A stretch of 58,939 nucleotides of DNA from Actinomycetes bacterium. GTDB lineage: Bacteria; Actinomycetota; Acidimicrobiia; Acidimicrobiales; JANYDT01. The position numbers and the translations under genes were made by a program. The stretch spans positions 1 to 58,939 of the forward strand of contig JANLQX010000514.1 in NCBI GenBank assembly GCA_031368095.1, in the 5' to 3' direction. Under the pieces are notes generated by a model. That model was not told the DNA's origin. It saw nothing but the letters and a program-made list of their open reading frames with translations, and made no database searches. The first letter of the stretch is position 1; every line of letters starts with the position of its first letter. Below, in pieces: positions 5,021 to 58,939 of this stretch.

Positions 5021-5057
5021 AATATTATTCCAGTTATTCCATAAAAGGAGCAACAGA

Positions 5058-6974: not shown

Positions 6975-6986
6975 AATTTAGCCGTT

Positions 6987-7071
6987 TCTATAAATACTTT
7001 GGTAAATCCGAGCAATTACTTGACATACCCAAGTAATCTAGAGTATCTTTATGTATGTGCAATTTGGTAAA
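6987..7071. promoter_or_regulatory. Divergent immunity-switch promoters and operators
   Basis: Minus strand: -35 TTGCTC (7010-7015) and -10 TATAGA (6987-6992) with a 17-nt spacer; the -10 ends 12 nt before the repressor ATG. Plus strand: TTGACA (7020-7025), with a weak -10 TATCTT (7044-7049). The inverted repeat ATTACTTG (7015-7022) / CAAGTAAT (7030-7037) overlaps the + strand -35. TTTGGTAAA occurs at 6998-7006 and 7063-7071. Confidence 0.6.
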
Positions 7072-7091
7072 CAACAAGAAAGGCTTAAAAC

Positions 7092-7280
7092 ATGAGTTCC
7101 ACAAAAAAGACCCCCTCTCTAATAATTGCAGTAGATAAAGAAACCAGTATGAAAGTTAGAGAGCTTCAATTTGAATTTTTCATAAAAACCGATGGGGGAA
7201 GAGTTTCCCAAAGCGCTATAGCCAACAAGGCGTTTTCCAAAATTACCATAGCGGATTTTCTTCCTAAAAAAGAATCTTAA
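7092..7280 (+). CDS. Small DNA-binding-like protein (RHH-like, Cro analogue candidate)
   Basis: First gene divergent from the repressor. SLIIAVDKETSMKVRELQFEF looks like a strand-helix RHH N-terminus. AT-rich. Confidence 0.45.
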   Translation: MSSTKKTPSLIIAVDKETSMKVRELQFEFFIKTDGGRVSQSAIANKAFSKITIADFLPKKES

Positions 7281-7805: not shown

Positions 7806-7850
7806 AGTATACATTTGTGGAATAAGAGATTCCAGAAATTTAAGGGACAG

Positions 7851-9593: not shown

Positions 9594-9642
9594 GGGCTGA
9601 TTTTGGAATGAGAGTTGAAGTAAACCAAATAAAGGCGATAAA

Positions 9643-10287
9643 ATGAGCAGTACAGGCCGTGGATCTATCCGAGTCGAAAATGATTTTTACCCAACACCGG
9701 TCCAAACCATTCAATCCATTTTTGACAGGATCCATTGGGGCAAGGTCGAAACATTTTTAGAGCCATGCCGAGGTGACGGAGTGATTCTGAACATGGTTCC
9801 CGATCCAATCGTAAAACATTCTTGCGAGATAATGGACGGGCAGGATTATTTTCTTACGGCAACCCCTTCGGTCGATTTGACTCTAACGAACCCGCCATTC
9901 TCGTCCGCGCTGGAGTTTCTTTCAAAAGCGATCGACGGCTCGAAAACTGTGGTGTTTCTGTTGCGAACCAACTTTCTCGGATCTGCAAAACGAATGCCCT
10001 ATCTTTCCGCTCATAGGCCAACACACCTGTACCAGCTTTCGGAAAGGCCGTCATTTGTGGATGTTTGCAAAGGCGGGCTTGTTCGAACTACCGGAGCGGC
10101 AGGAAAAATACTTAACTCCGAAAAGAAGAAAGGATGTGGTTGGGCTTTTCAGAAAAATGCAGGAGTTAAAGAGTGCCCAAACTGCGGGGGAAATGTTAGC
10201 GCCGGCACCGACTCGATTGAATACGCTTGGTTTTGTTGGGATAACGGACAGATAATGAAAGACATGCCTGGAATTTATTTTCTATGA
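9643..10287 (+). CDS. N6-adenine DNA methyltransferase with C-terminal Zn-ribbon
   Basis: DFYPTP, motif I-like LEPCRGDGVIL and motif IV NPPF. The C-terminal region carries CGW...CPNCGG. Confidence 0.75.
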   Translation: MSSTGRGSIRVENDFYPTPVQTIQSIFDRIHWGKVETFLEPCRGDGVILNMVPDPIVKHSCEIMDGQDYFLTATPSVDLTLTNPPFSSALEFLSKAIDGSKTVVFLLRTNFLGSAKRMPYLSAHRPTHLYQLSERPSFVDVCKGGLVRTTGAAGKILNSEKKKGCGWAFQKNAGVKECPNCGGNVSAGTDSIEYAWFCWDNGQIMKDMPGIYFL

Positions 10288-11263: not shown

Positions 11264-11736
11264 ATATTATGAAGAGCGGTTCGAAGGTGGTATGCCAAAA
11301 GTGTTTTGCAGTTCAGTCGCTACCTGTTGCAAATATTGAAGCTGGTCGGTACGCGGATTACGCCTGTGTGGAATGTTCCGAAAAGATGAATATTCTCAGC
11401 CTAGAAATCGTAGAAAGGCGAGTTTTGGAGCTGAAATGTTGGCCCGACAATTTCAGGCAGATCAAGCGAGGCGTTAAAACTTGCGATATACGAGTCAATG
11501 ACCGAGGCTACAAAGTAGGGGACACTCTTCACCTGCGGGAATGGATCCCCAGTGCCGATTACGATTTAGATGGGAGTGGAGAATACACTGGCCATTTTGT
11601 TTATGTCCAAGTCAAGCATGTGGTATGCGGTCAGCTTGGGATTCCACGGGGCCTCGCCGTCCTGTCGATTTCAAGCCCGCAGTTGTGGAGAAATAAAATA
11701 CTTGGTAAAAAAACTAAAAAGGTGTTGACCGTTTAA
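11260..11736 (+). CDS. Zn-ribbon + DUF3850 (ASCH/PUA-like) protein
   Basis: ATGA overlap with the upstream gene. Contains CQKC...CVEC, then LELKCWPDNFRQIKRGVKTCDIRVNDRGYKVGDTLHLREW, which is typical of DUF3850. Confidence 0.65.
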   Translation: MNIMKSGSKVVCQKCFAVQSLPVANIEAGRYADYACVECSEKMNILSLEIVERRVLELKCWPDNFRQIKRGVKTCDIRVNDRGYKVGDTLHLREWIPSADYDLDGSGEYTGHFVYVQVKHVVCGQLGIPRGLAVLSISSPQLWRNKILGKKTKKVLTV

Positions 11737-11791
11737 AACCTTTTGGGTAATTTAAAGAATATGTTATTCCATAGAATTAATAGGAATCAGA

Positions 11792-17809: not shown

Positions 17810-17850
17810 CCGCACCAGACGGCCTCTGGGAATAAACCAAAAGGAAGATC

Positions 17851-18141
17851 ATGAAGAAGTATACGAGAACCATCATTGAACACGTGGAAGCCGTTCAGTT
17901 CGACGGAAACGTGCCGCCCGATGTGGATGGACAGCCTACAAGCACTGTTCGGCTTAGCGGTGACGGCATGCCATTTATAAACACGGTCTCTGGACCGCTA
18001 TTCTTGAACACTGGGGATTTCATTGTGTACAAGGGCAGCGATATTTCCATAGTTCCTGAAAGCGAGTTTCTGGATAACTACAAGGAAGTTGCCGAGGAGA
18101 CGAAGGAAGCACTTGTAGAGGCCGCGGGCGTAGAAGCCTAG
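17851..18141 (+). CDS. Hypothetical protein
   Basis: RBS AAAGGAAG upstream; 96 codons. Confidence 0.6.
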   Translation: MKKYTRTIIEHVEAVQFDGNVPPDVDGQPTSTVRLSGDGMPFINTVSGPLFLNTGDFIVYKGSDISIVPESEFLDNYKEVAEETKEALVEAAGVEA

Positions 18142-19024: not shown

Positions 19025-19065
19025 AATTAATACACATAAAGCATAAAGGTGTGCTATATTAAACA

Positions 19066-19392
19066 ATGAAGGCGGATAAAATGAGCGGCAACTCAAAGCG
19101 CGTACTTAGTATGACTTTGCATCGAAAATGGTTCGACGCTATTGCGAAGGGGAAGAAGAAGAAGGAATACCGAGACTCCAAGGATTACTGGCTTAAAAGA
19201 TTTTTCGATCCCGAAGGTCGATTGATCAAGTACGACGAAGTGCATTTCAAGAACGGGTACTCGCCGGAAGCCCCATTCATGCGTGTGGAATGGTTAGGCA
19301 TGAAGAAGATAACGGTTGAAGGATCGGAGGTCTGCGCGATTCAACTAGGAAACGTGCTGGAGATCCTTAATTGGAAGGGGCCGGCAGCATGA
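19066..19392 (+). CDS. ASCH domain protein
   Basis: MTLHRKWFDAIAKGKKKKEYRDSKDYWLKRF...YDEVHFKNGYSPEAPFMRVEW. It is preceded by ATAAAGGTG (19043-19051). Confidence 0.6.
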   Translation: MKADKMSGNSKRVLSMTLHRKWFDAIAKGKKKKEYRDSKDYWLKRFFDPEGRLIKYDEVHFKNGYSPEAPFMRVEWLGMKKITVEGSEVCAIQLGNVLEILNWKGPAA

Positions 19393-20252
19393 ACCGCCCA
19401 ATCTGGACCACCGAAAAGCGTAAAGTCAAAGACCTTATTCCCTGGCCGAGAAACCCCAGGCGCATCACCGAAACAAAGATGATGCACCTCAAGGAAAGCC
19501 TGAATAAGTTCGGGTACGCCGATCCAGTAATCGCAAATGTGGACGAACAGCTTATTGCGGGTCACATGCGCCTCAAGGCGATGGCGATTCTTAAAATGGT
19601 AACACCGGATACCGATGTCGATGTTCGCATTCCTAATCGGCGCCTTACCGAAGACGAAGCCAAAGAACTGGCTGTTCGTCACAATGGCAAATTTGGCGAG
19701 TGGAATATGGAAATGCTATCCGCAGATTTTACCTATGGAGAACTGCTTAATTTCGGCTTTGAAAAATTCGAACTAGGTTTCGACATGGGTAACGAGCCGC
19801 AAAAAGAATCTCATGGGGAAGACCAGGATCCCGAAGACGACGAAGCCGACGGCAAAGAGCCTCAGGACAGCCAGGCGGGCGACAGCGCAGTCAATAACGC
19901 AGAAATTCCATCCGGGAATCGCCAGGGCGGGCCGAGCGTGGAACCGGAGGCTTTGGACCTGAAGGACATCGAAGAGAATAACCCAAAACTACAGGCGTTT
20001 TTAGATCGCCGTCGCGCAGCAAAAGAGCGCGGCAAGGATAAGGGAGAATTGAATTTCTGGCTCTGCATAGTTTTTCAATCCTACGAACAGAAAATGGAGT
20101 TTTCCACCAAACTAGGGCTGGAAACAAAGTACGGCATGTATGCCAATGGAGAGGAGATTGCGAAAAAAATTGCTCTATCCATTACCGAAACGACTCAAAA
20201 ACCTGTCCAGGTGCCGCTAGACAAAGTACTATCAAAGATGGTTCAACAATGA
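19389..20252 (+). CDS. ParB-like nuclease domain protein (IbrB-like)
   Basis: ATGA overlap with the ASCH gene. LIPWPRNPRRITETKMMHLKESLNKFGYADPVIANVDEQLIAGHMRLKA; acidic low-complexity middle region. Confidence 0.7.
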   Translation: MNRPIWTTEKRKVKDLIPWPRNPRRITETKMMHLKESLNKFGYADPVIANVDEQLIAGHMRLKAMAILKMVTPDTDVDVRIPNRRLTEDEAKELAVRHNGKFGEWNMEMLSADFTYGELLNFGFEKFELGFDMGNEPQKESHGEDQDPEDDEADGKEPQDSQAGDSAVNNAEIPSGNRQGGPSVEPEALDLKDIEENNPKLQAFLDRRRAAKERGKDKGELNFWLCIVFQSYEQKMEFSTKLGLETKYGMYANGEEIAKKIALSITETTQKPVQVPLDKVLSKMVQQ

Positions 20253-20268
20253 GTGGAGGTGATACTGA

Positions 20269-21156
20269 ATGGCAAAGAAGAAAGCAGCTAAAAAACTCAA
20301 GCCCGTCCCGCCCAAAAAGCGTGGCGCCAAGCCCCTAAAAAAGGCGGAGGCAAGAAAGGCAAAGGCGGAGGCAAGGGAGGCGGCGGAGGCGGTTAAGCCT
20401 GCGGTGATTCTCGAAACCGACAAGTCTCGTTCGCTCTGCGAAACCATATCGCTTGAGTCGGACGGGACTTGTTTTCTTGGGTTCAGTCGCGGAAAAGACA
20501 GCATTGCTGCATGGCTGTACCTGCGCCGGTTCTTTAAACGTGTAATCCCATTTCACGTAGCGACGGTACCGGGTCTGGGTTTCGTGGACCGAAGCCTAGC
20601 CTATTATGAGGCGTTTTTTCAAACTCCAGTGCTGCGCCTCATGGACGGGGATGTGATCAAGGATTTAAACCGCATGATCTATCAGCCGGAATCGGACGAA
20701 GCCGAGATCGACGATTTAGAGCTTTGGACCTATAACAAACACAATATTTTGGACCTTTTGCGCAAGGTTTACAACATTCCAAATGCCTGGGGAGCGTTCG
20801 GCATCAATATGACGGACAGCCTGGACAGGCGAATATATGTAGCGCAATGCCAAGGCCGCCATGATACGTGGAAGACGTTCTATCCATGCTGGGATTGGAC
20901 GAAGGAACAGATCCTTGCTTCTATAAATGCCGTGGGTCTGGCTCTGCCGGGCGACTATCTGCTCGCTTCGCGCACAGTTGCAGGAACACCGTCTTATCGG
21001 CACATCAAACGCATGCGAGATATGTACCCGGAAGACTTCGAAAAGATAACCCACATGTTCCCGTACGTATACGCCGAATTGGCCAGGCAAGAATTTCGAG
21101 AGGCTATGCCTAGATTCCAGAACGCTGTCAAGACCAAGAAGATCAAGGCCGCCTAA
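20269..21156 (+). CDS. PAPS-reductase-family (PP-loop ATPase, IbrA/DndC-like) protein
   Basis: Lys/Ala-rich N-terminus, then the PP-loop-like segment CFLGFSRGKDSIAAWLYL. Confidence 0.65.
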   Translation: MAKKKAAKKLKPVPPKKRGAKPLKKAEARKAKAEAREAAEAVKPAVILETDKSRSLCETISLESDGTCFLGFSRGKDSIAAWLYLRRFFKRVIPFHVATVPGLGFVDRSLAYYEAFFQTPVLRLMDGDVIKDLNRMIYQPESDEAEIDDLELWTYNKHNILDLLRKVYNIPNAWGAFGINMTDSLDRRIYVAQCQGRHDTWKTFYPCWDWTKEQILASINAVGLALPGDYLLASRTVAGTPSYRHIKRMRDMYPEDFEKITHMFPYVYAELARQEFREAMPRFQNAVKTKKIKAA

Positions 21157-21158
21157 AA

Positions 21159-21602
21159 ATGCTTAAGGACTACAACGGGTTTGGCGGAGACGATCGATAC
21201 CGCTTAAGCATTGCTCATCGTAAGGCAGTGGCCGATAAAACGCTTCCCAATCCAGAAAGGTGCGAAATGTGCTCGCAGACAGCGGGTCTGATTGTTCGCC
21301 ACAACGAGGATTACGATCAGCCAGTAAAAGGGGCTCACGCCCTTTGCGTTGAGTGCTATATCCGCCTGCGCACCAGATTTTTCAAACCCCGCTCCTGGCA
21401 GAACTGGCTTTCTCGCATTTTGGCCGGCGCAATGTCAAAGCCTTATCGAAGGGTCAGCGAATGCTGTTTGGCGCTTATGGGGGAAGACGATCCGAAAGTA
21501 GTCCAATGGGAAAACCCAAGGGCCTTTTGGTACCAAAGGCTTTCCGTTCGCCCACTGGATTTTCGGAAACTGCCAGAGGACGTAAAGGAGAGGCTAAGGT
21601 GA
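21159..21602 (+). CDS. Zn/His-motif protein (same C-x2-C...H-x-EDY...LC-x-EC motif as 14794..15327)
   Basis: CEMCSQTAGLIVRHNEDYDQPVKGAHALCVECY. Confidence 0.55.
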   Translation: MLKDYNGFGGDDRYRLSIAHRKAVADKTLPNPERCEMCSQTAGLIVRHNEDYDQPVKGAHALCVECYIRLRTRFFKPRSWQNWLSRILAGAMSKPYRRVSECCLALMGEDDPKVVQWENPRAFWYQRLSVRPLDFRKLPEDVKERLR

Positions 21603-21784
21603 CAACAGACCGAGAAATTGATTTAGAAGCGGCATTAGAATACTACAAATCCGTAGCTATCGTATGCGGATTTGCGATCAAGGAGTTGACGACATGGGCA
21701 GATGGCGAGGCGTCCAAGGGAAATAACCCGGTACCGAAACAAATTTTGGAGAGGCTGAAAAAAGCTCAGACGGGAGAGCAATGA
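21599..21784 (+). CDS. Hypothetical small protein
   Basis: GTG 21599 overlaps the upstream stop (GTGA). The long ORF from 21353 overlaps 21159..21602 out of frame and is not preferred. Confidence 0.5.
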   Translation: MTTDREIDLEAALEYYKSVAIVCGFAIKELTTWADGEASKGNNPVPKQILERLKKAQTGEQ

Positions 21785-21933
21785 AGCGCTTCTGGGGGAT
21801 TCGACATGTGCGGTGGGCATGGTGCTGGCTAAACTACCTGATTTTCTTTAGCGTAATCGGAGGGGATTTCTGGAGATGGGTTTGCCCGAGCGACTGGGCG
21901 TACCTTCAGGACGTTTGGGATGGAAAGGCATGA
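21781..21933 (+). CDS. Trp-rich 50-aa protein (below the ORF-track cutoff)
   Basis: ATGA overlaps at both ends. Translation: MKRFWGIRHVRWAWCWLNYLIFFSVIGGDFWRWVCPSDWAYLQDVWDGKA. Confidence 0.45.
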   Translation: MKRFWGIRHVRWAWCWLNYLIFFSVIGGDFWRWVCPSDWAYLQDVWDGKA

Positions 21934-22124
21934 AAATGGAGAAACAACCCCAATTCACGGACACCACCAGCACGGCTAAAATGACAAAAGCGCCAAAGGG
22001 CCGAGCGGAACTGGTGGCGGACTACTACCGAGAGCTACGGGCTGATGCGAGGATGCCAAGAGCTGTAAGGCGACAGCTTCTTCGCGATTTTGAAAAGGAA
22101 TTACGGAAAGCAGGCGTCAATTGA
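21930..22124 (+). CDS. Hypothetical basic protein
   Basis: ATG 21930 is coupled by ATGA. MKMEKQPQF...RAVRRQLLRDFEKELRKAGVN. Confidence 0.5.
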   Translation: MKMEKQPQFTDTTSTAKMTKAPKGRAELVADYYRELRADARMPRAVRRQLLRDFEKELRKAGVN

Positions 22125-22297
22125 CCAGAGAGACATGGTATTTCTTTCCGCATAGATGCCTATTCTTGATCATTTTTTGGGTGCTTATTGTTTTGTGTTG
22201 CGTGGGTCTTGTTTTGATTAGCCCATTTTACTTGGCTAAAGTTTTGTTTAGCGCAAAACCCTTTGACGGAAAAAGAAAAATCTAAAAGGAGTTCGAC

Positions 22298-22618
22298 ATG
22301 TTAATGGAAATTGAAATGTTCACAGAGGACGAGTTAAAAGGAAAAGTGGCAGTGATCCGGGTATCCTCGGACGAGGAGGTCCATAGCGTCATGAACCAGA
22401 TCAACGCCTTCCAGTCCCGCAGACCGGACCTAGCTAAAGTGTTCAGCTTCATGGTGCTCCCGAAAAACATGGAAATTCGGGATGTGATGGACGTGGCTCA
22501 GGAAATGGCGCGAAAAGCAAAGGACGCACCGGCATCGCATCCTATGGTAGAGAACACAGCGGCAGACAGGGCTGAAATCGTCATACCAGGAAAGTCAAAA
22601 GCCGATGCCAAGAGCTAA
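22298..22618 (+). CDS. Hypothetical protein (first gene of the late operon)
   Basis: RBS AAAAGGAG lies 7 nt upstream. It follows a 173-nt T-rich noncoding spacer. Confidence 0.6.
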   Translation: MLMEIEMFTEDELKGKVAVIRVSSDEEVHSVMNQINAFQSRRPDLAKVFSFMVLPKNMEIRDVMDVAQEMARKAKDAPASHPMVENTAADRAEIVIPGKSKADAKS

Positions 22619-22790
22619 GCTTCGCGATCTTGAAATAAACGCCATAGAGACAAAGCCTGGGTGGTGGCAACTGGAATTCGAATCCGGAGAAATCCACCAC
22701 GTTGAAGGGGATTTGTTTCGCGCCTTATTTAAAAAGGTGGTGGAAGAAAATTATCCAATAAAACTTGAAAAAAAGGTGGATCAGGTATGA
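22605..22790 (+). CDS. Hypothetical protein
   Basis: Overlaps both neighbours; 61 codons. Confidence 0.5.
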   Translation: MPRAKLRDLEINAIETKPGWWQLEFESGEIHHVEGDLFRALFKKVVEENYPIKLEKKVDQV

Positions 22791-23050
22791 CCGGCTACAC
22801 AATCAACAAGGGTGAGCGCCTGCGCGGGAACGTCAACGAGTCTCATGTGATGCTAAACCTGCCTCCATGCTCCATGCCAATGCCAAACGGAGACGGGACT
22901 AATGCCCCTACCTGGAGCAGCCCCCATCACCATACTGTTTTCAGCAGCGGAGAGCGAGAGGCCAGGAATCGCCGCGTATCAGCGCAGAACAGAAGAGTAC
23001 GCAACAATGCGAAAAAAGCAAGCGAAGTAAAACCCGTGGGAGAAATCTGA
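22787..23050 (+). CDS. Hypothetical protein
   Basis: ATGA overlap at the start and TGATG overlap at the end. Confidence 0.45.
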   Translation: MTGYTINKGERLRGNVNESHVMLNLPPCSMPMPNGDGTNAPTWSSPHHHTVFSSGEREARNRRVSAQNRRVRNNAKKASEVKPVGEI

Positions 23051-23523
23051 TGAACGAGGCAAGTATAATCAAAGCGCCAAGTAGGATAAAACCAGTCGAA
23101 TTGTTTTACAAATGCGTCCATTTCAAGATACAGGAGCTTGTGGACAAGGAAACCTTTCAGGCCCTTGGGGAATCCGCCTGGATGCTTTTTGACCGGAACC
23201 TGCTTGGAGCTATGGACAGGATTCGCGAGAGGTACGATGTGGAAATCACGGTTAACAACTGGGCCACAGGCGGGCCTTTCTCGCAAAGAGGGTTCCGGTC
23301 CAGCGATTCGACAACCGGAGCCAAGCTATCCGGGCACAGAAGAGGCCAGAACTTGGATTTTGACGTGAAAGGCAAGACGGCGGACTGGGTGAGAAAAGAC
23401 ATCTTGGACAACAAGGATCATATTGATTTCATGTTGATTACGAGAATGGAGGTTGGAATCTCCTGGGTGCATATAGGCGTGGAGAACGTGCCTGGACGCA
23501 TTCTGCTTTTTAACCCGGCATAG
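23050..23523 (+). CDS. Peptidase M15-family (DD-/LD-peptidase) cell-wall hydrolase; endolysin candidate
   Basis: SGHRRGQNLDFD (H-x6-D) and a later WVHI give a Zn-ligand pattern typical of M15A/VanY-like enzymes. Confidence 0.65.
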   Translation: MNEASIIKAPSRIKPVELFYKCVHFKIQELVDKETFQALGESAWMLFDRNLLGAMDRIRERYDVEITVNNWATGGPFSQRGFRSSDSTTGAKLSGHRRGQNLDFDVKGKTADWVRKDILDNKDHIDFMLITRMEVGISWVHIGVENVPGRILLFNPA

Positions 23524-23526
23524 CAC

Positions 23527-23724
23527 ATGGCTAAAACAGCAGCAGAGAGAGGAAAGAATTTCAGGCAGAAAAACCCTGAAAAAGTCAAGGCATACGCACA
23601 TGATGCCAGGCAACGAGAAAAGGAATACATGGAAACAAAAAAGAGAGAAAAAAGGGAACGATTGGCCAAAATAGCCCAGGAAGCCAGAAAGTCAACGCAC
23701 GAATTAAGGATGTTGCCGTGTTAG
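23527..23724 (+). CDS. Hypothetical highly basic protein
   Basis: The sequence is rich in Lys, Arg and Glu. Confidence 0.5.
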   Translation: MAKTAAERGKNFRQKNPEKVKAYAHDARQREKEYMETKKREKRERLAKIAQEARKSTHELRMLPC

Positions 23725-24032
23725 GCAAAGTCATGGAAGAAATAGGTCTTGAAGGCCTTTTCGAAACCATTATCAAGGGTGAAAACTTTAGTGGCGAGGC
23801 TTTACGAGTGCTGAAAAAGGCTGAAATATCCGCCAAAAAGGAAGGGCAAAAAGTCGGAGTCACGCACCTGGTTCTTGCCATGCTTTGCGAAAACACCACA
23901 GAAACCAATGCTTTGGAAAAAGCGTTCCAGGCTGGTGAGGCAATAATTGCCGCTACGGAAAGTATTAAAAACGTGATCGAATCCTTTAAAATAGCAAAAA
24001 ATGAGGCGTATCCTCAAAAACCTAAACACTAG
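23718..24032 (+). CDS. Clp_N-repeat-like protein
   Basis: GEALRVLKKAEISAKKEGQKVGVTHLVLAMLCEN resembles a single ClpA/ClpB N-domain repeat. The start could instead be ATG 23733. Confidence 0.45.
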   Translation: MLGKVMEEIGLEGLFETIIKGENFSGEALRVLKKAEISAKKEGQKVGVTHLVLAMLCENTTETNALEKAFQAGEAIIAATESIKNVIESFKIAKNEAYPQKPKH

Positions 24033-24043
24033 GAAAAAGAATT

Positions 24044-24571
24044 ATGTCGGAAGATCTTAAGAAAACAGGGAGGGTTCGAGTTCCGGCAAAGCACAAAAGG
24101 AACTTCGAGGAGACCCATGAAATACTCACGGAAGCCTATGTGACGTTTCTAACCAATGGCTACCCGAAATACCCCAACCCAAAAATGAAGCAGCCGACGA
24201 TCAAGCAGCTTTGCGAAATCGCAGAAATGAACAAGAGGACAGTGGAAAGACACCTGGCGGAACTCGACAAAGACCTGAACTTCACCCGTCGAGCAAGCAA
24301 GTACAGACTGGCATCCGATGTGATTATGAAGTCATGGCTAAAAGCAGCAGTCAAAGGGAACGTCGCTGCCGGTGAGAAATTCATGCAGGTATCCGAACAG
24401 ATTAATTTCGGGTCCATTGTGAAAATAGAGACTGGAGATCTTTATCCCGGGCCGGATTTGGTGAAGCTAGGCAAAGAAGACTTGATAGCCTATAAAGCCC
24501 TTATGAAGAAGATGGCCGGAAAGGCGGAAAGTGGTAACTCTCAACCCGCACCACGAACTACACAGGATTGA
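24044..24571 (+). CDS. terS: Terminase small subunit candidate (HTH)
   Basis: Position immediately upstream of and overlapping TerL. HTH-like segment PTIKQLCEIAEMNKRTVERHLAEL. Confidence 0.55.
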   Translation: MSEDLKKTGRVRVPAKHKRNFEETHEILTEAYVTFLTNGYPKYPNPKMKQPTIKQLCEIAEMNKRTVERHLAELDKDLNFTRRASKYRLASDVIMKSWLKAAVKGNVAAGEKFMQVSEQINFGSIVKIETGDLYPGPDLVKLGKEDLIAYKALMKKMAGKAESGNSQPAPRTTQD

Positions 24572-25973
24572 GGTCGAAGAAGCCCGTCGAGAACTGATTC
24601 CGTACATTAAGGGCAATATTCCCGGGTACATAGACGGTTGGGTGCACCAAAAGATTGCCGCAGCCCTGGAGCAGTTTTCAAGGGATGTGGTAGCCCTGAA
24701 ATCCCCTCGTTTAATGCTATTTATGCCCCCCCGGCACGGAAAAAGTGAATTATCGAGCCAAAACTTTCCAGCCTGGCACCTCGGGCATCACCCCGAGCAT
24801 GAAATCATTGCTGCATCCTACAACATCGACAAGGGCGAGGACTATTCCGAAAAGGCTTTAGAGTACGCGCAGGGCGAGTGGCATAAGCAGGTGTTCCCAG
24901 GCTTCGAATTCAAGGGTAAGAAGCAAAGCCGTTCCCACTGGAAGACCAAAAAAGGCGGAAAGATGCTCGGTACTGGTGTGGGTGGCGCCATTACCGGTAA
25001 AGGAGCGCACATTGTAATCCTGGATGACTTGGTGAAGAACTGGGAAGAGGCTATTTCCAAGACCAAGCGAGAAACAGCCTGGAACTTCTACACGTCCACC
25101 ATTCGCACGCGCCTTGCCCCAGGCGCTGGCATAATTCTGATCATGACCAGGTGGCATGAGGACGACGTGGCCGGCAGGCTCCTCAAAAAGATGGAGGAGA
25201 ACGCGGCAATCCGCCGATGGCAGATAATCGAGTTCCCGGCAATCGCGGAGAAGGACGAAGAGTTCCGAAAGAATGGTGAAGCCCTGCACCCCGAGCGGTA
25301 TGGGTTGCCAGATTTGAAGGAAATCGAGGTTGAGGTTGGGCCCCGCGTCTGGATCTCTCTGTATCAGCAAAAGCCGCGTCCGCTTGGTGGACAGTATATC
25401 CGAGCTTCCTGGTTCAAGCGAATTTCCGTAGCGGAAATGCCAAAGCCGACGCGAGAGGTGCGGTTCTGGGATCTTGCTGTAAAGGCAGCCCAGGCAAACG
25501 ATGAGTCTGCCAGTGTGCGAATGTTCATTGTGTCCAAGATCCCAGAAGGCGGACGGACTCCGTTGACATACGTGTACCTTCGAATGATGACAGCCTACAA
25601 AAAGGAATGGCCGGACAGCAAAAAGACCATTATTGCCCTGGCTTTGGCCGAGAAAATACCGATCGGCATCGAAGCCAATTCAGCTTTCGAAATCGCCGTG
25701 CAGGAGATCCGCGCCGACCTTAAGGGAAAGATCAATGTGACTGGAATCTCGATGTCCACGGACAAGCTCACGCGGGCATTGCCGTGGATGGACTTGGCTG
25801 AGGCTGGCCGAGTGTTCCTAGTTGACGGCGAAGGAGCTGATTGGATACCCGCTTTTCTTTCGGAGTGCGAAAGCTGGGATCCGCTGGAGAGCGCTCAGGC
25901 CGACAATCGAATTGACGCGGTTTCCGGAGCATATATGATGGTTGGAGTTAAAAAAATGGCCAAAATTATATGA
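24531..25973 (+). CDS. terL: Terminase large subunit
   Basis: Walker A-like MPPRHGKSE, Walker B IVILDDLV, and a C-terminal nuclease-like region. GTG start follows GGAAAGG. Confidence 0.85.
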   Translation: MVTLNPHHELHRIEVEEARRELIPYIKGNIPGYIDGWVHQKIAAALEQFSRDVVALKSPRLMLFMPPRHGKSELSSQNFPAWHLGHHPEHEIIAASYNIDKGEDYSEKALEYAQGEWHKQVFPGFEFKGKKQSRSHWKTKKGGKMLGTGVGGAITGKGAHIVILDDLVKNWEEAISKTKRETAWNFYTSTIRTRLAPGAGIILIMTRWHEDDVAGRLLKKMEENAAIRRWQIIEFPAIAEKDEEFRKNGEALHPERYGLPDLKEIEVEVGPRVWISLYQQKPRPLGGQYIRASWFKRISVAEMPKPTREVRFWDLAVKAAQANDESASVRMFIVSKIPEGGRTPLTYVYLRMMTAYKKEWPDSKKTIIALALAEKIPIGIEANSAFEIAVQEIRADLKGKINVTGISMSTDKLTRALPWMDLAEAGRVFLVDGEGADWIPAFLSECESWDPLESAQADNRIDAVSGAYMMVGVKKMAKII

Positions 25974-26097
25974 AATCTGGAATAATAGCTTTAACATGAA
26001 AAGTATATTCCATAAAATGAAATACATTTAGAACGAAAAGGGGGCCTCTCTGCCTTTTAAAACAAGCTTTCCATTCTGGGGGTTAAAAAAGAAGGGC

Positions 26098-28104: not shown

Positions 28105-28269
28105 GCTTGCTTTGCGTGCAGTCATTCGGATGCCCCTATCAAAAAAATGATGTTTCATGGCAAAAAAAGAGTCAGCACCCCTTTTTTCTTGTTGCAACTC
28201 GAAGTATTATCGAGATGAAGCATTATTCCATAAAGGTGGAATACTGAAAACACAGCGGAGAAAAAGCGC

Positions 28270-35347: not shown

Positions 35348-38300
35348 TTTTAAACCACGCGGCCGTACGAAACAAGCGGCCAACTTATCGTGCAGATATT
35401 GATTGTTGCAACCCGCTTGCGCGTGGACTTGTCTTTGCCGCCTACCCACTTGGTGGTAATTTCTATGATGCTATCAGCAAACAGGTGTCGGCGAATTTCT
35501 CCGTAAATCCAACAACCCGCCCAACCATCGATGGGAATAAAGCGAACACCCCTGAGATGCGAGGGACTACAGCAAACTTCCCTCAGTACACCACTCAGTT
35601 GGATCAGTTAGTAGGTAAATACTCTCTATTTGCTGAGGGATCCTTATTAACCAACGCAACGTCCTCACTTGTATTTGACTCTTTCTCGTCCGTATCTGGT
35701 AACGGCCTGGGTTTAAAGTTCGACGATCTCAACTTGATAACGAATGGGTTTTTCCTCTTCCTTCAGAACGGGAACAGCTCTGCCTCAAACGCTGATGTAC
35801 TGGGTCTCAATTCGGAAAATTTCAAGCACCGCGTGATGATTACCGGCGATGGCGCGAATGTTCGGCTGTACGCGAAAAACAAGCTGGATGTTACTGTCGT
35901 AAATGCAGTCACACCGCTAGCATCCACAACTAGGCAAACACGATTACTCTCGAGTGGTACAGCCGCCCTAGGACTAGCGCTTGCGTGGAATCGCGTGCTT
36001 TCGCTGGATGAATACCAATCGCTTTTTAATAACCCAGATCAGTTATTCAAAAGCCTTCCGCGTCGTCGGTATTTTGTTGTTGGCGCTTTCACTAAAAACC
36101 TTAGCGGGGTTTTTTCATCTACAGATGAGCCTTTTGCGATCGGTGCCATTTTAAAAGGAGCGGTCAATCTTAGTGGTGTTACAAACAAAACCGACGAAAA
36201 TGTCAACGCAGGTCTGACGGCCTTCTCAACCCCTATAGGTGGGGCAAGCATAAAAACAGACGAGGCTATTGGGCTTGCGTCCATGCTCGTTGCTCCCCCA
36301 CCTTTATCCGGGCAGAATATCAGCACTGACGAAAAGCAAAACACTGGTAATGTTTTAGTTGGCGCGCGCGCTTTAGCTGGTGCCTCGGCAACCACGGATG
36401 AAAAGACGTACACGGGATTAACCAACTCCTTGCCGTATACCGCACTCTGGGAAGAGAAAGCGAATACCAACCTCGGAAGCGTAAAACCGGCCACAGCCCC
36501 ACTAGGAGCCACCGGGTACACCGCCGTAATGACCGCGTGGGGTGGCGGTGTCTTTGGTGGTGGTTATTTTATGATCGCCTGTAACGGTGGTCACACAGAT
36601 TATGCAGGCAACGAGGTGTACGGCTTGCCTATATCCACCTATGTGCCTGTGCTTTTGCGTCAACCAACCACAAACGCAATCATAGCGGGTTCTTCGACGA
36701 TCGAGGCCTCGGGGCTTTATGCCACGGCAGCCGTAGGCAACACCCCGGACCCACAAGCACCGCGTTCCAGACATGGTTACAGCATGGCGCAGTGGTGCTC
36801 GGTTAAGTCGAAAGTGGCTTTGATGGGTGCATTCGGGGAGTACATTGCGGCTGGCCAATCCTCTGTCATTCGCTATTACGATCCGGTAGCCAATGATTGG
36901 GAAACAGGACCAACCATCCTAACCCCATTCGATGGGGCATATTCCGCAACGATTGAAGACACCTCTGGTAACCTGTGGTTTCTTGGTGCCGGTTCTGGTG
37001 GCCGGTTGAACCGAATAGTACCATCCACTGGGGTGGTCACTGAGTTTGGCGACATTTTCATGCACGCCATGCAAAGCTATCCTCGTACTGGGGTGTATGA
37101 CTCATTAAATAACAGATTTTGGGTCTTCGGTGGCAATGGCACCGTCATGGAGACGGGATACTGGGATTTAAACAACCTAAGTGGAAATGTTGATTTTACC
37201 AGCGTGACGCCAACTGGCGACACAAACATTCTGCTGCAACCAGCCCCCGGCGCCGCGTGGTTTGCTGGTGACAATAAAATTATTCTCTGGAGCGGGGGCA
37301 CATCTGTAACCGTCTTCGACCCAACCACGTTCAAAGCGCAGTCGATCAGCCTAAATTCAGCCAACACCGTGACGCCTACTGCTGCCCAAGGAAACGGCAC
37401 ATACGGCAGATTTAGAGCGATTGGGCCAGACTCGTTTCTTGGTGTCAACTCCATGGACGGAAACTTTTTCAAACTACTGCTGCGCGGGGCGGATGTTTCC
37501 TTAGCTGGGTCAAACTCCCCGTCCGACTCCGTGACGCGCAACGGCAGCGCAGCCAACACAAGCGTCGGCCTATCCGGAAGTTTCTCAACCCCTGACTCGG
37601 ACATAAAACCCGGCACAGCTTTGATATCAAGCCAACCACTGCTGGGGACTGTTGGGGTGACGGATGAGTCTACTTTCCTAGGAGCTTTAGGGCTCGGCGC
37701 ACGGGCTTTGAGCGGCCAGTTTGCAGCGTCAGACATGGTAACAGCTCCTGGGGGCGTGGCGGCTTCCAGAAACATCCCTGGGGCCAATTTACTCACAGAC
37801 GAGGCAGCCAATAGCGGGGTGCTATCCCCATCAACCACGATACTGGGCGCTGGAAATTCCAGCGACGAGAGGGCATATGCCGGAGTCGCCGCCGTTAGTG
37901 CGCTGGCCCTAGCTGGTAACAATAGCCGGACAGATGAAAAAGCAAATATAGGTATCGCCTCTTCAGGATCGGTTAATCTTCCCGGAGCAGCGAACACCAC
38001 GGATGAAAAGCTCAATACCGGAGGCGTATCGCCCGCAACGTCCATACTAGGTGCAGGATGTTCAAGCGACGAGAAGCTTAATGCCGGAGTCTCAACCCTT
38101 GGTGCAACAGGCCTCCTTGGTAATGGCATCCAAACGGACGAAAAGTCAATCGCCGGGATTGCTGGTTTGGGTTCGCTTAACCTCTCAGGAGCGCCAAACA
38201 CCACCGATGAAAAACAGAACCCTGGAAGCGCCTTAGCATCCATAGGGCTCTCCGGCCAGTTCGTTCTCACAGACGACGGGTTTAGGTTGTCCACCATTGC

Positions 38301-40737: not shown

Positions 40738-40800
40738 ACTAGGAAGTATTATTTAAACACCGTTATGGAATAACATATTCCAGAATAAAGGAAGGACGCT

Positions 40801-41217
40801 ATGAGATTCTTAAATCCTAAACAGACTTGGTTCGTTTCTACACCGGAGGATGAATTGCTTCCGGTTGAGGAGAGGACTGTTTTCCATTTGCGGACGCTCA
40901 CGGTTGACGAAGACACCTATCTGCAAGATCGCTTGGGATCGGTGAGCGACGACGGCATGAACATCAAGCTTGGATCACAGGAGCTTATCGCTATCAATAT
41001 TGGTTTGGACAAGGTTGAAACCCCAGAAGTGGATGAAAACGGAAATCCAATCCTATTCGAACGCGACGAAAAAAAGGCGTTTATCCACGGCATCGACAGA
41101 AAGATTCGCCCATGGAAATCCGAGAGCTTGTCTCGGTTGGACAAAAAAACTAGAAGCTTTCTCGCCAAGTCCATTATTGACGGTCCGAAGCTCAAGGAGG
41201 CGGAAGTAAAAAACTGA
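40801..41217 (+). CDS. Tail assembly chaperone G
   Basis: Position directly upstream of the tape measure. It ends ...EAEVKN-TGA with a slippery heptamer on its last codons. Confidence 0.7.
   Translation: MRFLNPKQTWFVSTPEDELLPVEERTVFHLRTLTVDEDTYLQDRLGSVSDDGMNIKLGSQELIAINIGLDKVETPEVDENGNPILFERDEKKAFIHGIDRKIRPWKSESLSRLDKKTRSFLAKSIIDGPKLKEAEVKN
41208..41214 (+). promoter_or_regulatory. -1 programmed ribosomal frameshift slippery heptamer A_AAA_AAC
   Basis: In the G frame the sequence reads GTA AAA AAC TGA. The -1 frame is open from 41181 to 41654. Confidence 0.7.
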
Positions 41218-54030: not shown

Positions 54031-54067
54031 ATAAAGGTGTTGACAAATACCCACCTTTAACTATATT
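54031..54067 (+). promoter_or_regulatory. Early sigma70-type promoter P2
   Basis: ATAAAGGTG (54031-54039), TTGACA (54040-54045), 16-nt spacer, TATATT (54062-54067). Confidence 0.7.
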
Positions 54068-55444: not shown

Positions 55445-55646
55445 GATCAGCCAGCAGGCTTTTAGTATCACCTACGCTCAAGGAACGGCTATCAGGTCAG
55501 CCGTGGTGTACGCGACAGACGAAAAAAACGCGAAGGCAGCCTTTTTAAAATGCTCTCACGCTTCAAAATCTGTTTTGCGGGTGAACAGCCTGGCTGATAG
55601 CCAGAAACAAAAGCGTGAGTCTAGTTCGTTTCGTATTATTCCATAA
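55437..55646 (+). CDS. Hypothetical protein
   Basis: ATG 55437 overlaps the upstream stop by 8 nt. Confidence 0.5.
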   Translation: MDKISQQAFSITYAQGTAIRSAVVYATDEKNAKAAFLKCSHASKSVLRVNSLADSQKQKRESSSFRIIP

Positions 55647-55748
55647 AGGTGTCGTCTATTAAACATTTTAACATTAACTTAAGGGTAAGAATATGAAAAC
55701 CAATTTAATCACGGGAACAGGCTTTTCGGAAGCCGGAAGGAGCGCTAA

Positions 55749-55928
55749 ATGAAAATCCTATTGCTACGAATACTCCACCTGGAGCGCACCATTCTAAAGC
55801 TAAAAGCCGAGATAAAGCGGAAAGACCAGGAAATTCTAGGCCTTATGGATGATCGGGCGGACGCATGTAAGCGGTATGCCAGTCTTCTACACGAATGCGA
55901 ATTGGAGGACAGCAAGTGGAAGGATTGA
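55749..55928 (+). CDS. 59-aa coiled-coil protein (below the ORF-track cutoff)
   Basis: Strong RBS GGAAGGAG lies 7 nt upstream. Translation: MKILLLRILHLERTILKLKAEIKRKDQEILGLMDDRADACKRYASLLHECELEDSKWKD. It is preceded by a coupled 19-codon ORF (55693-55752). Confidence 0.5.
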   Translation: MKILLLRILHLERTILKLKAEIKRKDQEILGLMDDRADACKRYASLLHECELEDSKWKD

Positions 55929-56326: not shown

Positions 56327-56341
56327 GATTATTAAAAGGTA

Positions 56342-56370
56342 TTGACAATTAACGCCCTTATCAATAAATT
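56342..56370 (+). promoter_or_regulatory. Early sigma70-type promoter P4 giving a near-leaderless mRNA
   Basis: TTGACA (56342-56347), 17-nt spacer, TAAATT (56365-56370). The first ATG is at 56378 and has no SD sequence. Confidence 0.55.
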
Positions 56371-56377
56371 GAAAACC

Positions 56378-56845
56378 ATGAGACTACCCCCGAATCCAAA
56401 CTACCTGGCTGAAATTGCAGCCACCCGTGAAATGGTTCTGACCGCAAGAGCAAAGCGCGGCAATGTATCCCTGGCCGTGATCGCCTCGGAATGCGGCCTG
56501 CATTCAAACCTTGTTATGCGAGTCATGAGCCCAAAGCCAGATACCGGAGAATCTTCCTATACGCCTACCAAGGGAACAGTGGACGCGCTTAGATCGTGGG
56601 CAGAGAAGAATAAGAAGGCCAAGACTGTTGCGCCGGAAAAAGTTCAGAAGGACTTAGGGGCCAGGATCAGGTCGGCTTATGAGGTGAAAAAAGCCCGTGG
56701 TATGAATGCCGAGGAAATGGCGATGGCGGCAGGGGTTAACCGCACAGTGTTTTCGCAGTTGATGAATGGTTCGTATACGCGAACCCTGCGGCCAACCACT
56801 CTGAAGTCATTGAACGCATGGACGGATAAAGCGCTTCGACAATAG
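56378..56845 (+). CDS. Double-HTH DNA-binding regulator candidate
   Basis: Two HTH-like segments: SLAVIASECGLHSNLVMRVMS and MNAEEMAMAAGVNRTVFSQLMNG. Confidence 0.55.
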   Translation: MRLPPNPNYLAEIAATREMVLTARAKRGNVSLAVIASECGLHSNLVMRVMSPKPDTGESSYTPTKGTVDALRSWAEKNKKAKTVAPEKVQKDLGARIRSAYEVKKARGMNAEEMAMAAGVNRTVFSQLMNGSYTRTLRPTTLKSLNAWTDKALRQ

Positions 56846-56859
56846 AGCGCACGCCCGTC

Positions 56860-57162
56860 TTATCTAGGGATGATAGAGCGCTTCGCTGGCATATCTTTGA
56901 TCTTCCGCTTTTTGAAATACTCTTCCAGTATCAAGTACTGAGCTTCGTATATTGGGATGTTCTCCCAGTAGGCCAAACACTTGATTAAATAAAGATGATC
57001 CTTATGGATGACTGCGGAGTGTCTCCGGAACCCTGCCGGAAGATACTTGCTGTCCTTCGGACCTTCTCCAATGGCATCCTCGATTTTTTGGTCCTGAAGC
57101 GAAGGCTTTTTTGGGGCTGCTATGTGGGCGTCTTCTCTTCTCAGTGCATTTGATTTTGCCAT
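56860..57162 (-). CDS. Hypothetical protein (one of three minus-strand genes)
   Basis: 100 codons, convergent with the HTH gene. Tandem short repeats lie upstream of it. Confidence 0.5.
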   Translation of the reverse strand: MAKSNALRREDAHIAAPKKPSLQDQKIEDAIGEGPKDSKYLPAGFRRHSAVIHKDHLYLIKCLAYWENIPIYEAQYLILEEYFKKRKIKDMPAKRSIIPR

Positions 57163-57368: not shown

Positions 57369-57405
57369 ATAAAGGGGTTGACAATTATACACCGTTCTAT
57401 ATATT
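57369..57405 (+). promoter_or_regulatory. Early sigma70-type promoter P3
   Basis: ATAAAGGGG (57369-57377), TTGACA (57378-57383), 16-nt spacer, TATATT (57400-57405). Confidence 0.7.
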
Positions 57406-58142: not shown

Positions 58143-58939
58143 TGGAACAGATGCAATTTATAAACGACATCCCCAGGAACTTGGCAATAGCAGCCCATGC
58201 GGGAACCAGCTTTGTGCCGGAAAGGCGCGGGGACGCAGAGCGAGAGTCCTACGCTTCCGAAATGGCGGCGGACTATGCAAGGCTGGCCAAGCACGCTGAC
58301 ACCCCAGAAAAGCAGGCGCAACTAGAAGAAGAGTTTGCTAGGTATCGAACGGGGTATGCGGCCAGAACCAGGCTATACCTTTCCGCAAGGTCTAGGTGCC
58401 TGTCAACAATGATAACTGGCCCTTCAAATTTCAATACTCGCAGGAACACCAAAGCCAACAATTCCGAGCGCAACAAACTGGATGAATTGGTTGGATTCAG
58501 AGAGCGGGCTTTAAAGGCGATTATAAAGAAAATGCACCCTGAGCTCAGGCCTATAATGGCTGGTGATGGCGATGCACTGGAGCGCCTGCAAGAAAAGCTG
58601 GATACGCTGGAATCCAACCAGGAAATGATGGTCGCAGTAAACGCCACTATACGCAAGTACGCCAAGGAAGGGGCGGAAGCCCAGGTGGCCGGATTGATTG
58701 ATCTGGGGGTTTCTAGGGTCAGAGCTGTCGCGCTTCTCGTCCCGGATTTTTGTAAGCGAATCGGCTTTCCATCCTACTCTCTGACCAACAACGGCGCAAA
58801 TATTCGGCGACTCAAAGGGCGCTTGGAAGCCCTTTCCAAAACTAAGACCCAAGAGGAAACGGAAACGATCGGCGAAGCCGCCACCGTGAACGATTGCCCG
58901 GCAGAAAACAGGATCCGCTTGACGTTCCCGGGCAAGCCC
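58142..58939 (+). CDS. DUF3560-like protein, N-terminal part (runs off the window end and continues at 1..279)
   Basis: ATG 58142 with no stop before 58939. The joined gene is 312 codons. Confidence 0.7.
   Translation, partial: MEQMQFINDIPRNLAIAAHAGTSFVPERRGDAERESYASEMAADYARLAKHADTPEKQAQLEEEFARYRTGYAARTRLYLSARSRCLSTMITGPSNFNTRRNTKANNSERNKLDELVGFRERALKAIIKKMHPELRPIMAGDGDALERLQEKLDTLESNQEMMVAVNATIRKYAKEGAEAQVAGLIDLGVSRVRAVALLVPDFCKRIGFPSYSLTNNGANIRRLKGRLEALSKTKTQEETETIGEAATVNDCPAENRIRLTFPGKP
58799..58939. repeat. Terminal direct repeat copy 2 (identical to 1-141)
   Basis: Exact duplicate of the window start. Consistent with circular assembly overlap or terminal redundancy. Confidence 0.95.

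Follow-up and report, generated by a model that had tools for sequence, protein, structure and literature searches.

At the PL promoter of phage lambda, repressor sites lie just upstream of the -35 hexamer and in the promoter spacer (OL1 and OL2), and a dimer binds each of these operators, a palindrome of 17 bp. The p4 protein of phage phi29 binds inverted repeats about 15 bp apart, and this one protein represses early promoters and activates late promoters, its activating sites lying well upstream of a late promoter that has no -35. The proximal subsite of the UP element, a feature of very strong promoters, is A-rich and spans -46 to -38, immediately 5' of the -35. Cluster A mycobacteriophages (L5 gp71, TipsytheTRex) use asymmetric operator/stoperator sites, more than 20 of them in L5, that impose an orientation-dependent stop on elongation (PMC9283540). 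T4-type phages carry, among their small early genes, repeated promoter(early)-stem-loop (PeSL) cassettes, each a strong sigma-70-type early promoter with a stem-loop, that are points of recombination at which modules are exchanged (PMC2839356, PMC4122927). Here we describe a repeated nonamer, ATAAAGGTG, hereafter the box, and a companion word, TGGAATAA/TTATTCCA, in the genome of an uncultivated phage with the gene content of a temperate siphophage. The genome is contig JANLQX010000514.1 of assembly GCA_031368095.1, a metagenome-assembled genome (MAG) labeled as an Actinomycetes bacterium, and the window is the whole of this 58,939-nucleotide contig.

The box is a real cis-element, specific to this phage, that lies between genes and is linked to strong promoters, and a dedicated binding protein would be its most economical explanation. 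Our preferred proposal, to which we give somewhat less than an even chance, is that ATAAAGGTG (core AAAGGT) is an operator half-site of a putative phage-encoded DNA-binding regulator. The nonamer occurs six times in the window against 0.34 copies expected, and none of 100 shuffles reached six. Five exact copies on the + strand, starting at 304, 19043, 28230, 54031 and 55643, are intergenic and lie on the gene strand. The earlier note had these five at the right coordinates; the sixth, at 36299-36307 on the - strand within a gene for a 1224-amino-acid fibre protein, had been missed. With a gene model drawn by hand from the list of open reading frames (ORFs), intergenic DNA amounts to 2,886 nt, or 4.9% of the window, and the binomial probability that all five + strand copies are intergenic is 2.8e-7. 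By this measure the box is the top 8/9-mer of the + strand. An order-2 Markov model trained on intergenic DNA expects 0.04 copies, and five were reached in none of 5000 simulations. The density of the word is 102 per Mb on the contig versus 1.8 per Mb in the rest of the MAG.

When both strands are counted, the most intergenic-enriched word of the genome is TGGAATAA/TTATTCCA (9 of 12 copies intergenic; Bonferroni 3e-5; Markov expectation 0.29), and the second is TAAAGGTG/CACCTTTA, with 6 of 7 copies intergenic. Counts in coding versus noncoding DNA on both strands, which the earlier note had proposed as a check, thus gave intergenic enrichment of both words. A seed-and-mismatch scan of all intergenic 12-mers recovered the same two families, and an unbiased repeat finder ranked the promoter units described below at the top. 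Besides the five exact intergenic copies there are three variant boxes; the other copies with one mismatch are coding or are ribosome-binding sites. The earlier statement that all boxes are intergenic is accurate for the five exact copies, the one at 55643 overlapping the stop codon of the upstream gene, and inaccurate for the box at 11716, which falls in the final codons of an ORF. Searched for in the literature, the words turned up in primer sequences only.

Sites at 304, 54031, 57369, 56333 and 11716 have the hexamers and spacers of sigma-70/sigma-A promoters, and AAAGGTGTTGACA, common to these five promoter-like sites, is among the top repeat families of the genome (D2 and D3). That three copies of the box abut TTGACA, as reported before, was borne out. 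What had gone unseen is an inverted partner of each -35-abutting box in the promoter spacer, so that the core AAAGGT-N14-ACCTTT brackets the -35. The centers of the half-sites are 20 to 21 bp apart, about two helical turns. This core dyad is found in all five promoters with 0 to 4 mismatches and overlaps the core promoter at a fixed geometry; genome-wide, all dyads with no more than three mismatches are intergenic. The clearest example is P54040 (54031-54067, + strand), with the box at 54031-54039, the -35 at 54040-54045, a perfect partner CACCTTTA at 54052-54059 and the -10 at 54062-54067. This promoter matches consensus at 11 of 12 positions, its arms form TAAAGGTG-N12-CACCTTTA without mismatch over 8 + 8 bases, and both core arms are complete (6/6 and 6/6). 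The core arms are equally complete, 6/6 and 6/6 at 11718-11743, in P11725 (11716-11753, + strand), which reads AAAAAGGTG followed by TTGACC at 11725-11730, the perfect core partner ACCTTT at 11738-11743 and TAATTT at 11748-11753. The full arms of its dyad are AAAAGGTGTT and AAAACCTTTT, and a TATTCCA lies just downstream at 11765-11771. P11725 (repeat family D3) is the weaker promoter: TTGACC-17-TAATTT matches at 8 of 12 positions, below the threshold of the promoter scan, its -10 matching at only 3 of 6. It has only 16 nt in common with the other box promoters and yet a perfect core dyad, and by these comparisons it is the best independent support for the dyad.

Three further promoters, all on the + strand, carry less perfect versions. 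P313 (304-340) has the box ATAAAGGTG at 304-312, TTGACA at 313-318, the partner CACCTATAA at 325-333 and TATATT at 335-340. It matches consensus at 11 of 12 positions, belongs to repeat families D2 and D3, has core arms of 6/6 and 5/6, and is adjoined by a TGGAATA at 297-303. In P57378 (57369-57405), a paralogue of P54040 that also matches at 11 of 12 positions, the box has decayed to ATAAAGGGG and the partner to CACCGTTC (core arms 5/6 and 4/6); the -35 is at 57378-57383 and the -10 at 57400-57405. P54040 and P57378 share a 108-nt promoter-plus-leader unit at 82% identity (repeat family D1), and the duplicated leader holds a hairpin that has no U-tract and was not called as a terminator. P56342 (56333-56370) has the box variant TAAAAGGTA, a -35 at 56342-56347, a weak partner CCCTTA at 56355-56360 and TAAATT at 56365-56370 (10/12; core arms 6/6 and 4/6). 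It drives a gene for a protein with two helix-turn-helix (HTH) domains in tandem, and with the ATG at 56378 the mRNA is nearly leaderless. The spacing is TTGACA-16-TATATT at P313, P54040 and P57378 and TTGACA-17-TAAATT at P56342. As an observation apart, the P313 spacer (319-328) reads GTTATCCACC, an 8/9 match to the DnaA box TTATCCACA, and lies directly 3' of the primase gene.

The words, their enrichment and their geometry relative to the promoter hexamers are seen directly in the DNA, and an inverted partner at every -35-abutting box points to an operator. Also seen directly, and counted in favor of the operator proposal, is one mosaic junction at a box, in a relative described below whose identity to the window begins at a box closer to consensus. 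With -35 and -10 hexamers this near to consensus an activator is unnecessary, and a flanking dyad is in keeping with repression. The differing dyad arms show no compensating changes and the RNA folds are weak and inconsistent, for which reason we interpret the dyad as a site for a protein and not as a structure of the nucleic acid. We infer that a protein binds the box and represses by binding. Each early promoter would offer it two inverted half-sites, one 5' of the -35 and the other in the spacer beside the -10, and a protein on both would cover the -35 and the spacer and shut the promoter. Single copies, oriented with transcription, stand at three further sites near gene starts. At 19043 the same protein would occupy the spacer of the promoter of a late operon; at 28230 and 55643 its binding would be joint with that of a reader of TGGAATA, or it would be part of that reader; and at such single-box sites it would repress weak promoters or block read-through. 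TGGAATAA/TTATTCCA, in either orientation and paired, would be a half-site recognized by this regulator or by another one.

This arrangement resembles lambda PL in that the sites flank the -35 of a near-consensus TTGACA promoter about two turns apart, and GGTGTTGACA..ATACC.CAC is found in both; operators on either side of the -35 are a likeness to lambda PR as well. It differs in that single words of 8 to 9 bp here form one wide dyad and in that the immunity switch, with its XRE repressor, lies elsewhere and uses other words. As with phi29 p4, the half-sites are inverted and far apart, by about two turns, and early promoters and the head of a late operon have one box in common, but the box of this phage is placed within the core promoter. 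A p4 homologue was not found.

The boxes that have no TTGACA are more diverse in their surroundings. At 19031-19065 (+ strand), the box (19043-19051) lies in the spacer of TACACA(19031)-18-TGC-TATATT(19055-19060), a promoter-like site with a 9/12 match and an extended -10 (TG). From 19066 to 25973, through the terminase genes, there is no intergenic gap of 20 nt or more, and the site is by its position a plausible head of a late, packaging-proximal operon. Just downstream, 19061-19086 is nearly the same as 9623-9648 in its ribosome-binding site and start region, AAGGCG(G)ATAAAATGAGC, and by this likeness the ASCH-domain gene probably starts at the ATG at 19081 and not at 19066. The gap that separates the portal gene from the next head gene holds a composite at 28221-28252 (+ strand), ATTATTCCA-TAAAGG-TGGAATACT, in which the box at 28230-28238 is flanked by an everted TATTCCA (28224) and TGGAATA (28237) and then followed by TGAAAACA; its 10-nt arms are 90% complementary. 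The + strand here offers only a weak extended -10, TGG-AATACT, whose TG is the last two bases of the box, and the - strand reads TTTTCA-17-TGG-AATAAT. The 165-nt gap after the portal gene that holds this composite folds better than shuffles (z = -2.4), and at 28146-28200 it has an A-run/U-run stem-loop (GGCAAAAAAAGAG...CCCCTTTTTTCTTGTTGC) that is not a canonical terminator.

A second composite, at 55634-55665 (+ strand), consists of ATTATTCCATAAAGGTG and, after 6 nt, ATTAAACA, and its box (55643-55651) includes the stop codon of the upstream gene; the - strand reads TTAATA-16-TGG-AATAAT. The sites at 28230 and 55643 share the 17 nt of ATTATTCCATAAAGGTG, and at both the box is fused to TTATTCCA. 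Their - strand readings are extended -10 sites with poor -35 hexamers, antisense to every gene. The segments 19042-19065 and 55642-55665 are 88% identical, including TATTAAACA (repeat family D16). Downstream of the 55643 box, a 19-codon upstream ORF at 55693-55752 (MKTNLITGTGFSEAGRSAK) overlaps the ATG, at 55749, of a gene for a 59-amino-acid protein.

The companion hexamer TATTCC/GGAATA, which the earlier note had recognized as frequently paired and beside boxes, is enriched (13 of 55 copies intergenic; rank 5 among 307 composition-matched hexamers). It proved to be part of a separate and stronger motif, TGGAATAA, used in both orientations. The motif has 13 intergenic copies with the consensus (T)TTATGGAATAA(T/C), six on the + strand and seven on the - strand, next to genes that are all on the + strand. 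Both orientations beside + strand genes argue against a promoter element and for a protein-binding half-site. Seven of the 13 copies adjoin a TAAAGG-like sequence, which links the two word families physically. The reading of TGGAATAAT as an extended -10, which formally fits the - strand at 28222 and 55635, was rejected as a general one, since 7 of the 13 copies would then fire antisense to all genes.

Several of these copies are paired. Palindromes of 17 bp, TGGAAT-N5-ATTCCA, occur at 7818-7834 and 40766-40782. The first is the center of a 27-bp palindrome with no assigned strand at 7813-7839, ATTTGTGGAAT-N5-ATTCCAGAAAT, with 11-nt arms that are 91% complementary. The second is a perfect palindrome fused to an inverted box-like word, CACCGTTA-TGGAATA-ACA-TATTCCA, at 40758-40782 (+ strand), just 5' of the ribosome-binding site of the gene at 40801. 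Upstream of the portal gene (25978-26018, + strand), TGGAATAAT at 25978-25986 and TATTCCA at 26006-26012 bracket the -35 of a promoter-like site, TTAACA(25991)-16-TAAAAT(26013), with a 10/12 match. A direct repeat of the family, TATTCCAGTTATTCCA, at 5026-5041 (+ strand), with copies at 5026 and 5035, runs into the ribosome-binding site AAAAGGAG of the gene at 5058, and a single copy, GGGAATAA, lies at 17828-17835 (+ strand) in the 41-nt gap before the gene at 17851. The copies at 5026 and 26006 start one base later than had been recorded, and GGAATA at 17829 and 25979 had been overlooked.

A possible binder is encoded beside a box. The 155-amino-acid protein encoded at 56378-56845 (gp56378-56845), downstream of P56342, was modeled as two four-helix XRE-type HTH domains in tandem, with a mean predicted local distance difference test score (pLDDT) of 72. 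Shared SYT.T and L..W..K motifs suggest an internal duplication in this protein, and BLASTP aligns nothing between its halves. P56342 also has a dyad of its own, TATTGACAA-N9-TTATCAATA, over its -35 and -10 (56340-56366), which is identical in the mosaic relative described below and, from its place, may be an autoregulatory site of the tandem-HTH protein. Further small proteins of uncharacterized function are encoded close to box promoters. Among small proteins of the phage, the 62-amino-acid protein in the Cro position (7092-7280) and a 100-amino-acid protein encoded at 56860-57162 on the - strand look ribbon-helix-helix-like by eye, and neither has a significant match. For the two candidate binders modeled, mean pLDDT was about 72 and no fold match was significant.

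The immunity switch at 6975-7091 uses other words, a ATTACTTG-N7-CAAGTAAT palindrome and GGTAAA repeats, and on this ground the XRE repressor is probably not the binder of the box. GGTAAA belongs to a third intergenic family, T(T/C/A)GGTAA(A/T), with + strand copies at 6999, 7064, 10366, 10378, 11702, 57319 and 57328, some of them within the immunity switch and others a short way 5' of P11725 and P57378. The family is a candidate operator of the XRE repressor or the Cro-like protein.

A number of results weigh against an operator for a dedicated regulator. P313, P54040 and P57378 are paralogous and amount to roughly one observation, so independent evidence for the dyad comes mainly from 54031 with its paralogues, from 11716 and, weakly, from 56333. 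In P57378 both half-sites have decayed and the leader is conserved, and the constraint on the dyad is to that extent not uniform. A dyad search found no inverted partner at 19043, 28230 or 55643, and a promoter scan detected no + strand promoter at 55643. ORF scans and fold searches matched no protein to the words. The best folds for the tandem-HTH protein, C-proteins, ClgR, SinR and HipB, had probabilities near 1 and yet E-values of at least 0.14, and the promoter of its own gene has the poorest box and a different dyad. Lastly, the phage is an orphan in the collections that we searched, which yielded no diverged relatives for footprinting.

Among the alternatives, the one that survives best is that the box is intrinsic to the promoter, an explanation we regard as possible though unlikely. 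Here the box would be an A-rich, proximal UP-like subsite plus the flank of one strong cassette spread by duplication and recombination, and the TTGACA-less copies would be remnants or chance reuse of cassette ends. The consensus of the proximal UP subsite, attributed to Estrem et al. in 1999, is reportedly AAAAAARNR; the box occupies -44 to -36, TAATAAAGG at P54040, which takes in the two bases ahead of the box, matches by eye 7 of the 9 positions of this consensus, and the DNA upstream is A/T rich (ATTATTAAT). That P313, P54040 and P57378 are clear paralogues, the 108-nt unit included, also speaks for a spreading cassette. So does a mosaic relative that we found in a public assembly (Logan SRR23617214, 2,943 bp; L124), which encodes a tandem-HTH protein 97% identical to that of the phage. 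Its positions 102-656, the tandem-HTH gene with its promoter, are 97% identical to 56335-56889 of the window, and the DNA on either side is unrelated and carries another XRE repressor and another switch, the switch region having two copies of TTTACC, the reverse complement of GGTAAA. The identity starts at the P56342 box, which reads ATAAAGGTA in the relative, closer to the consensus than TAAAAGGTA in the window. It follows that the box travels with the promoter module and that module boundaries can fall at the box.

A recombination junction placed exactly at the box resembles the PeSL cassettes of T4-type phages (PMC2839356), as does the duplicated promoter-leader unit. The present stem-loop differs in lying in the leader and not being a terminator, and only one junction was seen. 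An A-rich subsite leaves unexplained the invariant GGT beside the -35 (GGTG in its conserved form) and the inverted copy within the spacer, the latter having, to our knowledge, no counterpart in PeSLs, which are not known to carry an operator dyad. Nor does an element that acts only upstream of a -35 account for exact 9-mers at 19043, 28230 and 55643 with no -35 after them, or for the 17 nt that 28230 and 55643 share with the other motif family. The earlier description of the box as a promoter or UP-like element plus the site of a dedicated regulator thus stands in its link to promoters and in a likely regulator, and falls as to a shared UP-like box.

A second promoter class appears improbable to us. 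Under this model, ATAAAGGTG-N6-(A/T)T(T/G)AAAACA would be the target of a host polymerase in modified form, of an unrecognized phage sigma factor or of an activator, and the sigma-A class would share the box. It had been noted before that three copies are followed after 6 nt by an (A/T)T(T/G)AAAACA-like sequence, and this is correct: the spacing from box to TTAAACA is identical at the three sites, and two of them are 88% identical over 24 nt as given above. These boxes lie 38 to 50 nt before start codons, with room for leaders of 15 to 30 nt, and 19043 heads the putative late operon. TTAAACA also follows the -10 of the strong, sigma-A-class promoters, at the expected start point. Against this, PHROG and Pfam scans, which covered about 45 ORFs, found no sigma factor, RNA polymerase or known late activator, although small uncharacterized ORFs remain; a 1285-amino-acid ORF considered as a phage RNA polymerase was ruled out as an SbcCD fusion. 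The hexamers between box and TTAAACA (TGCTAT, TCGTCT and GAATAC) have nothing in common, an ordinary extended -10 promoter accounts for 19043, and there are three sites only, two of them probable paralogues. No terminator precedes 19043, 28230 or 55643, and consequently no new promoter is required there. Among known promoter types compared by eye at the level of consensus sequences, sigma-54, sigma-H, sigma-E/K, ECF, sigma-D, the T4 late box and T7-type promoters, none fits the three TTGACA-less sites. The earlier suggestion that two promoter classes share one upstream box was not upheld, as the TTGACA-less boxes are at -40 of no recognizable promoter and the scanned ORFs supply no dedicated polymerase or sigma factor.

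We consider just as improbable a stoperator-like system, partly overlapping the operator proposal, in which a monomeric two-domain repressor would bind an asymmetric site at early promoters and in short gaps and stop polymerase in an orientation-dependent manner. The likeness to cluster A phages is considerable: the word is short and asymmetric, all five exact intergenic copies are oriented with transcription, sites lie beside the early -35 at promoters and in gaps of 41 to 165 nt, and the tandem two-HTH protein encoded beside box promoters would offer two DNA-binding domains in one chain. The differences are that there are 5 to 8 sites here as against the more than 20 of L5, that the site is doubled at promoters as a dyad, which a monomer does not need, and that the host is of another type. 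Neither a fold search of the Protein Data Bank (PDB) and a sequence search with the tandem-HTH protein nor the PHROG and Pfam scans revealed any likeness to L5 gp71 or the TipsytheTRex repressor, and the repressor of immunity in this phage is a small XRE protein, for which there are different candidate operators. A more specific model, which we rate as a little less probable still, would have gp56378-56845, its two different HTH domains joined by a flexible linker, read two different 8-bp subsites, TTATTCCA and TAAAGGTG, whether fused, inverted, everted or alone, in a manner both POU-like and stoperator-like, and this in a phage with no relationship to the mycobacteriophages. It would repress when bracketing a -35 and block read-through at oriented intergenic sites.

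Least probable is a function at the RNA level, in which the words would adjust translation or processing, whether by forming hairpins or as anti-Shine-Dalgarno segments, or would be plain ribosome-binding sites. In its favor, no ribosome-binding core is commoner than AAAGG, which stands in the ribosome-binding window of 23 of 82 gene starts; pairing of UAUUCC with GGAAUA or GGAG is possible; and folding predicts a hairpin at 28224 (-9 kcal/mol, z = -3.2) and others at 7818 (z = -3.1) and 5035 (z = -3.1). Against it, the five exact boxes have no start codon 5 to 10 nt downstream as Shine-Dalgarno sequences would, the -35-abutting boxes lie 5' of the -35 and outside their own transcripts, the folds at 55637, 19043, 304 and 11765 are no better than shuffles, and there is no Rfam match. 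The RNA explanation is largely refuted for the exact copies and holds for the near-copies at 9629, 5041, 40785 and 55192, which stand 4 to 8 nt before start codons and are ordinary Shine-Dalgarno sequences. Three of these, 9629, 5041 and 40785, had been listed earlier as near-copies of the box; the first, ATAAAGGCG, is at 9629-9637 and not at 9625.

The MAG consists of 515 contigs, and the window is one of these in full. A direct repeat of 141 bp at the contig ends (1-141 = 58799-58939) and a primase ORF that runs across them indicate a circular genome of 58,798 bp. The gene content, from PHROG and Pfam scans and tblastn, is that of a temperate siphophage, with integrase, endolysin, terminase and portal, and further genes encode the SbcCD fusion, the primase, a ParB-like protein and a PAPS-reductase-like protein. 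With few exceptions the genes lie on the + strand; the - strand carries those for the XRE repressor and a lipoprotein. The GC content of the contig is 49%, against 64% in the remaining MAG, and this mismatch suggests that the contig was binned with the wrong organism and that the MAG is a doubtful guide to the host.

Besides the mosaic relative described above, comparative searches found only the same phage in another public assembly (L125, L126). Megablast against phage records gave no relative usable for footprinting, and tblastn with the portal, TerL and RadC-like proteins gave best identities of 24 to 45%. Searches of related MAGs, of IMG/VR by protein and by patterns, and of JGI metagenomes by protein and by pattern were empty or returned matches too distant, and a pattern search of GTDB genomes gave three chance matches in coding DNA. 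In the protein database the best match to the portal was 33% identical, the first early gene had no match, and eight proteins were singletons at 90%. ATAAAGGTGTTGACA alone was rejected as a search word for being too short, its 117 IMG/VR matches being at chance level. Among 86 independent matches, only an unrelated low-GC, 122-kb fragment (IMGVR_UViG_3300035665_000004; L076) has the inverted partner. At 1771-1815 and 2807-2851 it carries two paralogous promoters, ATAAAGGTG-TTGACA-N4-CACCTTTAT-TTGaTACAAT, in which the 9-mer is repeated, inverted and without mismatch, on the two sides of the -35. The fragment yielded no homologue of any of the four candidate proteins tested, and we treat it as an analogous operator design and not as kin.

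Of the lambda, stoperator and PeSL types with which it was compared, the box system of this phage belongs to none. The category itself is ordinary, in that phage-specific operator and promoter boxes are common and the words described here are a further case. They would be more notable only if an effect of the oriented single copies on moving polymerase came to light, or if both words turned out to be read by one two-domain protein. With no close relatives in the collections searched, the control circuitry of this phage is readable only from its own repeats. In this light, the two words and the GGTAAA family provide a first map of its regulation, with five strong early promoters that have one dyad in common, a marked head of the late operon and several internal sites, and the words offer short DNA targets for finding regulators among its many uncharacterized proteins.

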